From Escherichia coli 042 (GTDB lineage Bacteria; Pseudomonadota; Gammaproteobacteria; Enterobacterales; Enterobacteriaceae), in NCBI RefSeq assembly GCF_000027125.1, contig NC_017626.1: a stretch of DNA of 64,000 nucleotides. One strand, 5' to 3'. A program made the translations under genes and the position numbers. Of the stretch, positions 28,684 to 32,823 are shown piece by piece. Each line of letters opens with the position of its first letter. Positions within the stretch are counted from its first letter, which is position 1. The notes under the pieces were generated by a model, which was given only the letters and a program-made list of their open reading frames with translations, was not told the origin of the DNA and did not search any database.

Positions 28684-28693
28684 TCGTTATTAT

Positions 28694-28729
28694 AATCGTC
28701 TGGTTTTCCTTATAACCAGACGATTTTCC
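28694..28729 (+). terminator. Rho-independent terminator of gdhA
   Basis: Inverted repeat AATCGTCTGGTT-loop-AACCAGACGATT followed by TTTCC, 10 bp after the gdhA stop. Confidence 0.6.
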
Positions 28730-28738
28730 CTGAGTTAA

Positions 28739-30682
28739 TTAAATCCTTAGCAGACGTTTGCAATTTGCAGCCGTTTGTTCTGCATCCTGGATATCCTGTT
28801 CCGACATTAAGCATCGCAACGCATCTTTTTCAATCCAGGGGTTGTTATTTCCGGCAATTGTTAGCCACATCCATGCTTGTTTATTATCAATTTTAGTGCC
28901 TGTCCCCTGAGCATACATTGCCGCAGTCTGGTGCTGCGCCTCGGTCGACCCTAAACGCGCCGCTTTTTCGTACCAGTGCAGCGCATGATTTTCATCTTTT
29001 ATGGTATCTTTTGTACCGTACAGATACATTTCGGCTAACAAAAATATCGCCTCTATTTGCCCACGCTGCGCTGCACCAGTAATCCATTGAATAGCCTCTG
29101 CGTTATTTTCAGGATCATCATTGTTGGTTAAATAATATTTCCCCAATTCATACATGGCCTCCCCTGCCCCATCTGTCCCATTTTTTGCTACTTTGGTAAA
29201 CCAGTACAGCGCTTTTTCCTGGTCCTGTAGAATACTCTCACTTTCGCTATACAACCTGGCAGTATGATATTGCGCATATAAATATCCCTGTTCTGCTGAT
29301 TGCAAAAGCCAACGATGGGCCTGTACCTTATCACGTGCCACACCAATCCCGTGTATATACATTTGTCCCAAATCATACTGGGCACGCTCATGTCCTTGTG
29401 TGGCGGCAGATAAATACCACCGTAATGCTTCTTCATAATTTCGTAATGGCTCAACAGCGAAGCGTGAGATACGGGCAATCTCATATTGCGCAGATGCGTT
29501 GCCATTTTTGGCAGCAAGTAAAAACCATTTTCGTGCCTCACTAATATTCTTATCCGTGCCCCTTCCATCGCGATACATGATGCCCAGCGCATACTGAGCA
29601 TCGATAACATTATGCTGCGCGGCGCGGGTAAACCAGTTAAAGGCTAATTTTAGATCCTGTGAAACCTCATCACCTTCATAATACATTTTGCCAAGAGAAT
29701 ACCAGGCAAGTGAATAGCCTTGCTCTGCAGCATGTAAGCAGGACTGGAATACAGAAGATGGATAATAAAAAAGACCTTTTAATTTTATGGCATTTAGCAA
29801 CTTTTTATATCCACTATGATGTTGCATTGCTAAATTATTGAAGCGTTCTGTTAATTTCCACTTGCGAATCATTTTTTCTTTTCGCCAGGAATATGATAAA
29901 CGCTCTATTAACAATGCCATATAGTTGTCTGATAGTTCAAATCCAGCGACTTTATTTAATACTGCGATATCAAACCATTTCAGGCTCTCTTCATTATCCT
30001 TTAATGATTGATAAATCGTAGCCATTTCCTTCCCGTTTTCCATTTCTTCCAGTGGAGACGAGTTACTGCCAAAGAAAGGGGTAATTTGTTTTTCGATTCG
30101 TGAATAAAGAAGACAACTTTCGTTAATTTCTGTCTGGATAGCTGGTTGACGGCTGCCTGCAACTAAATGCCATCTGAACGTTTGTGCAGCAGCGAGAGTT
30201 AATAATGGCCGGAATACCCGATGAAGATGCAGTAATAACGCTTCTTCAAAGCTCATTCGTGAGCTGAGATCTTTTTTCTCAAGGAAAGATAACGCCTTAG
30301 CAAGTTGCATGGGGGCGTGTTCGGGGGTTGCTTCATTCTCCTCACAGAGCATATCCAGCACGGCTTGCCAGGTGAATTCCTCCTCTGATTTAATAGTGAC
30401 ATCAGGAAGTGGATGACCAGAAAAGGTGTTGAGTGCGCGAAATGTCATCACAGGACGAGGATGAACAATACCCCTGGATATATTGATCGGTTGCTCTTCT
30501 TCCTCTTCTTGCCACTGATCTTCGTCGTCATAACGTAAAGCCTGTTCATAAGCATCGTGCAATTGTTGCCAGGCTTCGGGAGAATCTTCCGGGCGGCAAT
30601 TTTTTACCAGTTGCGCATAACGACGCTTAATATCTCGTTCTTCCGCGCCAGGTTGTAAACCTAATATTTCCCAGCAGTTCAT
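28739..30682 (-). CDS. J-like domain / Sel1-repeat protein, putative co-chaperone of the adjacent Hsp70
   Basis: ORF track 28739..30697 trimmed to ATG at 30682, which overlaps the upstream Hsp70 stop as ATGA. N-terminus CWEILGLQPGAEERDIKRRYAQLVKNCRPEDSPEAWQQLHDAYEQAL resembles a J domain but has RPE where HPD is expected; acidic linker; C-terminal half contains multiple Sel1-like repeats (AQYALGIMYRDGRGTDKNISEARKWFLLAAKNG, AQYDLGQMYIHGIGVARDKVQAHRWLLQSAEQG). Not a K-12 gene I recognise at this locus. Confidence 0.7.
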   Translation of the reverse strand: MNCWEILGLQPGAEERDIKRRYAQLVKNCRPEDSPEAWQQLHDAYEQALRYDDEDQWQEEEEEQPINISRGIVHPRPVMTFRALNTFSGHPLPDVTIKSEEEFTWQAVLDMLCEENEATPEHAPMQLAKALSFLEKKDLSSRMSFEEALLLHLHRVFRPLLTLAAAQTFRWHLVAGSRQPAIQTEINESCLLYSRIEKQITPFFGSNSSPLEEMENGKEMATIYQSLKDNEESLKWFDIAVLNKVAGFELSDNYMALLIERLSYSWRKEKMIRKWKLTERFNNLAMQHHSGYKKLLNAIKLKGLFYYPSSVFQSCLHAAEQGYSLAWYSLGKMYYEGDEVSQDLKLAFNWFTRAAQHNVIDAQYALGIMYRDGRGTDKNISEARKWFLLAAKNGNASAQYEIARISRFAVEPLRNYEEALRWYLSAATQGHERAQYDLGQMYIHGIGVARDKVQAHRWLLQSAEQGYLYAQYHTARLYSESESILQDQEKALYWFTKVAKNGTDGAGEAMYELGKYYLTNNDDPENNAEAIQWITGAAQRGQIEAIFLLAEMYLYGTKDTIKDENHALHWYEKAARLGSTEAQHQTAAMYAQGTGTKIDNKQAWMWLTIAGNNNPWIEKDALRCLMSEQDIQDAEQTAANCKRLLRI

Positions 30683-32379
30683 TGTAGACGCTCCCATTCC
30701 AGAGAGTCTAATGTCGGTTCAACTTTAGCCCGAAAATCAGCTAGTTGATCAGGATCCTGCTTCTCGAGTAGATAACTGAATTGACGAGAGCAATTGCTTA
30801 TCCAGTCTCGTGTTTCCGCCAGGGTGAGTTGATAGAGATTATCAAGACGGGCAATAAAGGCCTGGTTTATCTGTTCATCGCGTGGGTGAATTTTTAACAG
30901 GCTTAATTTGGACAACGACTGCTGTATTTGTTCTGCCGTTAATGCCCCTGGGTTCTGTTCAATAACCAGACTATTTTTAGCCCCTGTCAGTGGCACGCTG
31001 ATATCGACATCAAGAATACCGTTAATGTCGTACGTAAAACGAACATCAATACGCACATTACCGGCCGGTTTTGGCGGAACATTCACTGACAACTCCGCAA
31101 GGAAAATATTATCACCCACCATCCTGCTTTCACCCTGGTAGATTTTAAAATTAACCTCTGTTTGTTGATCATGTGCCGTATAAAAGGCACGAACGCGACT
31201 ACAAGGAATACTTCGGTTACGCTCAATAACGGGTGCAAAATAGCCTGATTCGCGGGTATGCCCCAGCGATTTAGAGGTATCAACGCCAAGTGTATAAGGG
31301 CAAACATCGGTCACTACTACATCTTGTAATTCGCTGTGCCGCGCTTTAAGTGCGGCCTGAATAGCCGCGCCCTGAGCAATGACTTCATCCGGGTTTAAAT
31401 GCATTGCCGGTATACGACCAAAAAGTTGTGTCACAAGTTTGCGAATCAGCGGCATACGTGTAGTGCCACCCACAAGAACAACCTGGTCTAATTGGCTAAT
31501 ATTAATTTTTGCATCGCGAATTGCCCGTTCCAGTGGCATACGGATTCGCTCGAAAAATGCCTGTAATAAAAATTCAAATTTTTCTGTGGTCAGATGCCAG
31601 TAATATCGCCTTCCTTCAATCTCCACACTGAAAGTTGCTTCGTCACGCATACTAAGCACGCGTTTGACACGCTCAGCCTCAATGCGTAAATGGCGTTGGA
31701 GTGTCGGTTCACGCCATTCAATATTTTCAGGAAGATCCATACGTGAGCAATATGCATCGATCAGGATATCGACAATATCTTCACCACCTAAAAAGTTATC
31801 CCCGGCACTGGCTCGTACTTCCATAATATTGTCAAACAACTCCAGTATGGAGATATCAAACGTACCACCACCTAAATCGAATACCAAAAATTGATGTTCA
31901 TCATCTTTATTATGCAAACCATACGCCAGTGCAGCGGCGGTTGGTTCGTTAATTAAACGTTCGACGTTTAAGCCTGCCATTGAAGCTGCCAATTTTGTTG
32001 CTTTGCGTTGCACATCACCAAAATAAGCAGGTACGCTAATTACTGCTTCTGTTATCTCTTCACCTAAATAGCTTTCAGCATCATCTTTTAGCTGACGCAG
32101 TATCAGCGATGAGAGTTCCTCTGCCCGAAATTCACGTCCGCCCAATTTAAACGTCTTTGATGTGCCCATCATGCGTTTAAAATTGGCTGCACAGTTTTGT
32201 GGTTTGATGAGTTGCAGGTCACGAGCTGCCTCCCCTGTCAAAACCATACCATCTTCGTCAACACAAACTACGCTGGGTGTTAAAAACTTGCCTAACGCAT
32301 TGGGGATCAGTTCACTTTGTCCATTTCGCCATACCGCTGCCAGACTGTTAGTCGTCCCGAGGTCAATACCGATAATCAT
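30679..32379 (-). CDS. Hsp70-family ATPase, HscC-like
   Basis: ORF track 30679..32394 (TTG) trimmed to ATG at 32379 with AAGAGGA Shine-Dalgarno. Hsp70 motifs present: IGIDLGTTNS (phosphate 1), FDLGGGTFD (phosphate 2), VLVGGTTRMP (adenosine), beta-sandwich substrate-binding region VTDVCPYTLGVDT; about 566 aa, shorter than DnaK. Confidence 0.75.
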   Translation of the reverse strand: MIIGIDLGTTNSLAAVWRNGQSELIPNALGKFLTPSVVCVDEDGMVLTGEAARDLQLIKPQNCAANFKRMMGTSKTFKLGGREFRAEELSSLILRQLKDDAESYLGEEITEAVISVPAYFGDVQRKATKLAASMAGLNVERLINEPTAAALAYGLHNKDDEHQFLVFDLGGGTFDISILELFDNIMEVRASAGDNFLGGEDIVDILIDAYCSRMDLPENIEWREPTLQRHLRIEAERVKRVLSMRDEATFSVEIEGRRYYWHLTTEKFEFLLQAFFERIRMPLERAIRDAKINISQLDQVVLVGGTTRMPLIRKLVTQLFGRIPAMHLNPDEVIAQGAAIQAALKARHSELQDVVVTDVCPYTLGVDTSKSLGHTRESGYFAPVIERNRSIPCSRVRAFYTAHDQQTEVNFKIYQGESRMVGDNIFLAELSVNVPPKPAGNVRIDVRFTYDINGILDVDISVPLTGAKNSLVIEQNPGALTAEQIQQSLSKLSLLKIHPRDEQINQAFIARLDNLYQLTLAETRDWISNCSRQFSYLLEKQDPDQLADFRAKVEPTLDSLEWERLQ

Positions 32380-32560: not shown

Positions 32561-32574
32561 ATACTCTAAATAAT

Positions 32575-32770
32575 TCGATTTGTAGGAAGGCAGCAAGTAA
32601 GTGAATCCCGAGGAGCTTACATAAGTAAGTGACTGGGCTGAACGACAAATCCGCATGGAGCGGATTTGAACGCTGCTTTCAGCGGCCCCGTAAGGGGTGA
32701 GGCCCATGGATGGGCCGAATAACCCGCAGACGCAGCACATGCAACTTGAAGCATGACGAGTATAACCAAT
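32575..32770. other. GC-rich structured non-coding segment (candidate small RNA or gene remnant)
   Basis: No convincing ORF; direct repeat AAGTAAGTGA twice 30 bp apart (32596-32605, 32623-32632); hairpins AATCCGC-ATGGAG-CGGATTT, CCCC-GTAA-GGGG (GNRA-type loop) and GGCCC-ATGGAT-GGGCC; followed by the 32771-32808 terminator hairpin. Confidence 0.25.
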
Positions 32771-32808
32771 AAAGCCAATGGCGGAATATCTACCATTGGC
32801 TTTGTTTT
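32771..32808. terminator. Hairpin terminator between topB and the structured segment
   Basis: AAAGCCAATGG-loop-CCATTGGCTTT followed by GTTTT on the plus strand and preceded by an A-rich run, so it could terminate plus-strand transcripts and, less efficiently, topB. Confidence 0.5.
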
Positions 32809-32823
32809 AGAGTGGAAAACGAA

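Follow-up and report, generated by a model that had tools for sequence, protein, structure and literature searches.

The closest described relatives of the genes discussed here lie in the hscC cluster of Escherichia coli K-12, in the order ybeQ (Sel1), ybeR (DUF1266), djlB (J domain), ybeT (Sel1), ybeU (DUF1266), djlC (J domain) and hscC (Hsp70). The ATPase of HscC is stimulated specifically by DjlC and does not need GrpE, and DjlB and DjlC are both tail-anchored in the membrane (PMC8215388). Within this cluster, at 3571-11394 of the extracted K-12 locus, ybeR/djlB and ybeU/djlC form two overlapping pairs, each a DUF1266 gene followed by a J-domain gene, which are interleaved with the Sel1 genes beside hscC; we found no functional description of this duplicated module in the literature searched. 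The known phenotypes of hscC are sensitivity to Cd2+ and to UV. HscC biology is poorly understood, and this is what gives value to a second pair of HscC type. Here we analyze a candidate for such a pair in a 64,000-nucleotide stretch of E. coli 042 (NC_017626.1), to which we refer as the window. Between its core genes gdhA and topB, at 28684-32823 (4,140 bp, on which the list of open reading frames and the RefSeq annotation concur), lie a gene for an Hsp70-family protein and a gene for a protein that joins a J domain to Sel1 repeats, which we call the Hsp70 cassette (Table 1).

The gdhA-topB interval is a multi-allelic accessory locus at which the window carries a minority haplotype, that of the Hsp70 cassette. 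In our estimation there is a probability of roughly 0.8 that the cassette is an old resident of this position, that it is exchanged by recombination in the flanking genes and that it encodes an HscC-type Hsp70 with a dedicated J-domain partner.

States and boundaries of the gdhA-topB interval

In K-12 MG1655 the interval measures 1,284 bp and contains a single gene, ynjI (b1762, 346 aa, minus strand), between gdhA and a topB gene encoding 653 aa. This is the arrangement that had been given for K-12 in an original prediction made from the letters of the window, which went on to propose that ynjI is absent from its expected position there and that an Hsp70 operon fills the interval of about 4.1 kb. 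Both proposals proved correct: a tblastn search with K-12 YnjI gave no match anywhere in the window (best E = 0.83), and the 4,140 bp are taken up by the Hsp70 and J-domain/Sel1 genes and their surroundings. YnjI likewise failed to match the 647-aa J-domain/Sel1 protein, whether by BLASTP (E > 1) or by profile-profile comparison with hhalign (probability 0.2%), and it could not be aligned to the segment at 32560-32823, which consists of an ERIC-like dispersed repeat and a hairpin. As YnjI aligns to none of the three, we reject a ynjI remnant or fusion in the window, including the possibility that 32560-32823 is such a remnant.

The state of the interval was counted in 5,426 complete E. coli genomes. 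The K-12 type with ynjI is found in 3,457 of them (~64%), and an empty state, in which gdhA is followed by 76 bp with REP-like sequence and then by a topB gene encoding 651 aa, in 1,514 (~28%). The Hsp70 cassette is present in 354 genomes (~6.5%), with 13 more carrying it in partial form, and the three main states together account for ~98% of the collection. The view that this is a variable spot between strains thus holds for the species at large, and the absence of ynjI from cassette-bearing strains is to be annotated as a natural allele and not as an assembly error. We regard it as a real but fairly ordinary strain-to-strain difference. Carriers of the cassette include Nissle 1917, clone D i2, 536 and A0 34/86. 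The allele of the window itself (at least 99% identity) occurs in only 20 genomes, and the remaining cassettes are 94-96% identical to it. Strain Ecol_316 (NZ_CP018957) is 100% identical to the window over 28600-32900. Cassette alleles within E. coli differ by 4-6%, and the backbones that bear them by ~3%. There are also subvariants, which comprise one or two J-domain genes (two in 536), presence or absence of the ERIC-like repeat, ynjI remnants and copies of ynjI disrupted by the insertion sequence (IS) IS1.

The ynjI state appears from its alleles to be deeply polymorphic in its own right. Some E. coli carry, at the same position (7001-8032 of the extracted loci), a ynjI allele with only 68% protein identity to the K-12 gene, and metagenomic relatives were seen at 80%, 60% and 58% identity. 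The protein carries a DUF1266 domain (E = 3e-25), its gene has a GC content of 41%, as low as that of the cassette, and its homologues were found essentially in E. coli only. The product of ynjI is an inner-membrane protein and its promoter is activated by BglJ-RcsB (PMC3950696). Our literature search found no paper on the gdhA-topB locus or on the function of DUF1266.

The boundaries of the variable segment are sharp. On the left, identity to K-12 reaches the TAA stop codon of gdhA (28683) and breaks at the very next base, and the homology of gdhA to every other state of the locus stops at exactly this codon. On the right, TopB is almost identical to its K-12 counterpart through residue 606 and divergent from there to its end; at the nucleotide level, identity to K-12 is ~40% at 32824-32938, 90% at 32939-33088 and 92-100% beyond. 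Because both nucleotide and protein identity drop within the 3′ end of topB, the variable segment, as read from these alignments, extends over ~28684-32975 and includes the last ~45-50 codons of that gene. A junction at or near this end had been suspected from the length of TopB, 648 aa in the window as opposed to about 653 aa in K-12, and the suspicion was well founded, with both lengths correct. The tails themselves sort by state: those of the Hsp70 haplotypes contain QARSTP, a signature common to all cassette haplotypes, while those of the ynjI and empty haplotypes contain QAKRTP. What we have quantified is therefore a three-state accessory locus with one boundary inside a housekeeping gene, so that TopB has state-specific C-terminal tails.

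Among the open reading frames of the interval and its surroundings there is no integrase, transposase or IS, no tRNA gene lies within 20000-42000, and the direct and inverted repeats flanking the interval are short and at chance level. Lacking mobility genes, tRNA and flanking repeats, the cassette is not a mobile genomic island or integrative element, and for the same reasons homologous recombination in the flanks is the likely mechanism of its exchange. A local import tract was not visible either, the window being 3-4% distant from every compared backbone for several kb on either side of the locus. As a separate observation, over 21600-39700, to the left as well as to the right of the locus, the window differs by ~3-4% of its nucleotides from K-12 and four further E. 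coli backbones, which is the upper end of the within-species range.

The Hsp70 and its J-domain/Sel1 neighbor

The larger part of the Hsp70 protein is covered by the Pfam HSP70 family (residues 2-491, E = 6.3e-135). With 566 aa it is close in length to HscC (556 aa; DnaK has 638), its identity, taken over the full length, is 43-44% to K-12 HscC as against 38% to DnaK, and it shares with HscC both the gaps relative to DnaK and a short C-terminal lid. It misses the equivalog cut-offs of DnaK (445 vs 648 bits) and of HscA (420 vs 709 bits, HscA having been compared as a model only). By these measures the protein is to be placed in the HscC subfamily, as a paralog at a different locus and not as hscC itself. 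Its TGA stop codon overlaps the start codon of the J-domain gene as ATGA and, because of this overlap, the two genes form an operon, probably with translational coupling.

The J-domain protein begins with MNCWEILG. Pfam recognizes its DnaJ domain over residues 3-46 with a weak score (E = 2.1e-4); by hhalign, however, its first ~55 residues, and only these, match DjlB and DjlC with a probability of 96.9% (E = 1.9e-10). An AlphaFold model of residues 1-320, with a mean predicted local distance difference test score (pLDDT) of 77, has a three-helix J domain (pLDDT ~85), a linker and a confidently modeled helical domain, for which fold searches of the PDB and AFDB returned nothing specific outside its own family. 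Sel1 repeats make up most of the remainder, and the C-terminal hydrophobic tail anchor of DjlB and DjlC is absent from the alignment.

The canonical HPD motif of J domains is replaced by RPE (codons 29-31, window 30592-30600). Variants of this motif abound in relatives: HPE in DjlB, DjlC, the Firmicute members and one E. whittamii paralog, RPE in Klebsiella and RPD in Pseudomonas. Since Klebsiella and Pseudomonas, too, have Hsp70-linked J proteins with the R-P-D/E form, the histidine seems to be dispensable in the HscC-type subfamily. RPE, RPD and HPE are all frequent within this J-domain family and the variant is typical of it, so that function may be kept.

Strain 536 offers a view of how the number of J-domain genes might change. 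Both of its J-domain genes are 94-97% identical to that of the window over the first ~600 nt, after which only the distal one, J2, continues to match. The two tandem paralogs (2540-6460 of the extracted locus) are near-identical to each other over the same ~600 nt, and beyond that point their identity drops to 40-56%. The pattern points to gene conversion of the 5′ parts, and this would also provide a ready substrate for changes in copy number.

Age of the cassette and rival explanations

A question raised by three alternative contents at one position is which of them was there first. The word "replaced", used of ynjI in the original prediction, stands as far as the absence of ynjI and the occupation of its place are concerned; the order that it implies, with ynjI first, is probably wrong, for the cassette is found at the same place in other species. 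The order is topB, a 267-aa gene, Hsp70, two J/Sel1 genes and gdhA in E. whittamii, and topB, a 266-aa gene, Hsp70, one J/Sel1 gene and gdhA in E. fergusonii, and strains of the Klebsiella oxytoca complex have topB, Hsp70, one or three J/Sel1 genes and gdhA. In K. spallanzanii an HscC-like Hsp70 gene lies upstream of the gene for a full-length J/Sel1 relative; besides this species, a scan of the genome collection with the N-terminus of the J/Sel1 protein gave matches to the J domain only. The extra gene next to topB in these two Escherichia species, 267 aa in E. whittamii (3458-4261 of the extracted locus) and 266 aa in E. fergusonii (5434-6234), encodes a signal peptide. It has no Pfam, PHROG or YnjI similarity, the E. 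coli cassettes are without it, and no remnant of it was found in the window.

Identity to the Hsp70 of the window falls in the order of the species, from 96% in another E. coli through 91% and 87% to 75-77%, and in the same comparison the flanking GdhA, TopB and SelD proteins are 87-99% identical. The GC content of the cassette also tracks its host, at 43-45% in E. coli and E. fergusonii and 54-56% in K. oxytoca. Because cassettes fill this interval in E. fergusonii, E. whittamii and the K. oxytoca complex as well, and also because YnjI homologues are essentially confined to E. coli, the Hsp70 cassette is probably the older occupant, and the direction of replacement would then be reversed. Long residence is favored over recent transfer by the species-order divergence, the host-tracking GC content and the shared QARSTP tail.

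We envisage the following course of events. The cassette haplotype would be an old resident of the gdhA-topB position in Escherichia and the K. oxytoca complex. Homologous recombination in the core flanks would carry it from one E. coli lineage to another, or else maintain it as a polymorphism of long standing. One crossover would fall at the gdhA stop codon or to its left and the second within the final ~50 codons of topB; the linked topB tail allele would in this way travel with the cassette, and no mobile-element machinery is needed. Tandem paralogs of the J-domain gene have been gained or lost, and a form with one such gene could arise from one with two by unequal crossing-over in the ~600 nt of homogenized 5′ sequence. 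A later ERIC insertion would have lengthened the spacer between topB and the Hsp70 gene. As for function, homology and gene order point to an HscC-type Hsp70 with a dedicated class-C J-domain co-chaperone, whose J domain would dock on the Hsp70 and trigger ATP hydrolysis, while the soluble Sel1-repeat solenoid and the family-specific helical domain would select the client protein or proteins.

Several points weigh against this account. The GC content of the E. coli cassette is ~10 points below that of its flanks (~54%), as a foreign acquisition would show, and no member of the full-length J/Sel1 family was found outside Escherichia and the K. oxytoca complex, so that one or more transfers between the genera, by way of flank homology, may have taken place. 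Furthermore, replacement of the histidine of HPD by glutamine inactivates DnaJ; given this precedent, the weak Pfam score of the J domain (E = 2e-4) and the presence of RPE instead of HPD, activity as a J protein is an assumption of ours.

The low GC content is also an argument for supposing that the operon is a recently acquired foreign island which displaced an ancestral ynjI, and the rarity of the state (6.5%, with the window's own allele in just 20 genomes) would fit such a history. We nevertheless consider it unlikely. The interval lacks mobility genes, tRNA and repeats; E. fergusonii, E. whittamii and Klebsiella have the cassette at the same place, where its divergence follows the order of the species and its GC content is adapted to the host; and ynjI, the supposed ancestral occupant, is equally low in GC (41%) and narrower in range.

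Are the alternative contents perhaps related in function? DUF1266, J-domain, Sel1 and Hsp70 genes stand together in the hscC cluster of K-12, and YnjI has a DUF1266 domain; the families of both states therefore co-occur elsewhere, and YnjI and the cassette could be interchangeable modules of one HscC-type network. We hold this to be just as doubtful as recent acquisition, for neither cassette protein resembles YnjI or DUF1266 in sequence or fold, the similarity between YnjI and YbeU is marginal (BLASTP E = 0.025), and among 58 loci outside K-12 that encode HscC-type J proteins just 1 has a DUF1266 open reading frame nearby (as judged with a narrow profile).

A further explanation is that the Hsp70 and J/Sel1 genes form a conflict module, directed against phages or effectors, in which the Sel1 adaptors diversify and the locus is kept polymorphic by balancing selection. 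The J/Sel1 proteins do diverge far faster than the Hsp70 (42% vs 87% identity between E. coli and E. fergusonii), although differential retention of paralogs accounts for much of the apparent divergence. Their copy number varies from 1 to 3, cassette and ynjI alleles are both deeply diverged within E. coli, and elsewhere related Sel1 arrays occur as fusions with kinases, with caspase-like and trypsin-like proteases and with TIR domains. On the other hand, the pair has no effector domain, its neighbors are housekeeping genes and not a defense island, and PADLOC gives only marginal partial hits (PtuA, 21 bits; PDC-M61B, 18 bits). A known defense system is thus rejected, the PHROG matches being to generic Hsp70 and Sel1 families of unknown function. 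We rate a conflict role as at best equally improbable. Much the same standing, that of a long shot, belongs to its fuller form, in which the pair surveys phage or other foreign proteins and the cassette is held as an ancient trans-species balanced polymorphism against the ynjI and empty states, with the topB tail hitch-hiking. The old resident cassette exchanged through its flanks remains our preferred explanation.

Intergenic elements and comparison with described systems

Between the convergent ends of gdhA and the J-domain gene lies a hairpin that is part of the cassette haplotype and has no counterpart in K-12; it looks like a bidirectional terminator. Upstream of the Hsp70 gene, a GAGGA Shine-Dalgarno sequence stands 7 nt before the ATG, and a scan for promoters and terminators found no convincing sigma-70 consensus promoter. 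This region also contains a perfect 19-nt palindrome of 7+5+7 architecture, TTGTGAACATTATTCACAA, at 32439-32457 (~60-78 nt upstream of the Hsp70 start), which is kept in E. coli strain 146 and not in E. fergusonii, E. whittamii or Klebsiella. It resembles a pair of CRP-type half-sites with the spacing off by one.

The ERIC-like repeat has a core (32601-32644) that matches the ERIC1R/ERIC2 primer region at 41 of 44 positions (0 expected by chance), and copies of the element at 32560-32760 occur elsewhere in E. coli genomes at 89-93% identity. Its insertion site is a TATA sequence that separates the topB hairpin from the region upstream of the Hsp70 gene. Strain 146 lacks the element, which is why the spacer measures 444 bp in the window and 241 bp in that strain. 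The topB hairpin lies just 3′ of the topB stop codon, occurs in the Hsp70 haplotype of strain 146 as well as in that of the window and resembles a terminator. A non-coding RNA in the spacer was considered and rejected, Rfam having returned sub-threshold hits only, and no family match, for the spacer including the ERIC-like element.

Table 1. Features of the gdhA-topB interval in the window and domains of the J-domain/Sel1 protein
Feature	Position	Strand	Basis or remark
gdhA	27340..28683	+	left flanking core gene
Hairpin, 12-bp stem, AATCGTCTGGTT / AACCAGACGATT	28694..28725	.	sequence reading; consensus scan silent
J-domain/Sel1-repeat gene, 647 aa	28739..30682	-	list of open reading frames and RefSeq annotation
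Hsp70-family gene, 566 aa	30679..32379	-	list of open reading frames and RefSeq annotation
Spacer, 444 bp			between Hsp70 gene and topB
AT-rich Hsp70 upstream region (~36-38% GC)	32380..32559	-	presumed promoter
ERIC-like dispersed repeat, ~201 bp, long form	32560..32760	.	core match and dispersed copies
Hairpin, AATAAAGCCAATGG / CCATTGGCTTTGTT	32768..32806	.	inverted repeat and alignment
topB, 648 aa	32824..34770	-	right flanking core gene
topB 3′ tail allele, last ~50 codons, with right-hand recombination junction	32824..32975	-	
J domain, DjlB/DjlC type	residues 1-50		Pfam, hhalign, alignment
Disordered linker	residues ~53-101		AlphaFold model
Family-specific all-helical domain	residues ~102-300		AlphaFold model
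Sel1 repeats, about nine	residues 328-613		Pfam: five with E < 1e-3, four weaker

A second Hsp70 system of HscC type, so far uncharacterized, is thus carried by the K. oxytoca complex and by ~6.5% of E. coli, the probiotic Nissle 1917 and the uropathogen 536 among them. It resembles the HscC system of K-12 in the identity and shared deletions of its Hsp70, in a J partner that starts with a truncated J domain of the form M-x-CWxIL and in the adjacency of the Hsp70 and J-domain genes. It differs from it in that the J-domain gene here lies downstream of the Hsp70 gene and overlaps it, whereas djlC and hscC are convergent in K-12; in that Sel1 repeats and a family-specific helical domain take the place of the membrane tail anchor of DjlB and DjlC; and in its RPE motif, as against HPE in those two proteins and HPD in DnaJ. 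A soluble J partner with Sel1 repeats and RPE would offer a handle both on how specialized Hsp70s choose their clients and on whether the histidine of HPD can be dispensed with.

An HscC-like Hsp70 gene stands directly upstream of a J-domain gene of the MxCWEILG type in ~24 of 58 loci, from Pseudomonas, Firmicutes and others, and because this arrangement recurs so widely the pair in the window is a member of a widespread and uncharacterized class of Hsp70-J modules. The pairs of Pseudomonas, Marinobacter, Enterococcus and Clostridia share with it the MxCWEILG start, an Hsp70 gene that ends at the start of the J-domain gene and the frequent use of RPD and RPE; most of their J proteins, however, lack Sel1 repeats and are predicted to contain transmembrane segments. 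Apart from a possible example in Gynuella, the Sel1 form turned up in Escherichia and the K. oxytoca complex only.

Eukaryotes have co-chaperones that combine a J domain with TPR-type repeats, such as DNAJC3/p58IPK and DNAJC7. These too join a J domain to a solenoid of helical repeats that binds clients or partners, but there is no detectable homology beyond the domain classes: the repeats are TPR and not Sel1, the order of the domains is different and the partner here is an Hsp70 of HscC type.

Finally, as a locus, the gdhA-topB interval resembles other variable regions of the E. coli core genome, in which alternative accessory segments between conserved genes are swapped by homologous recombination in the flanks, in its sharp boundaries at core genes, its alternative contents, its lack of mobility genes and the mosaic end of a flanking gene. 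It differs from them in that one junction falls within coding sequence and in that one of its alternative contents is syntenic in another genus.

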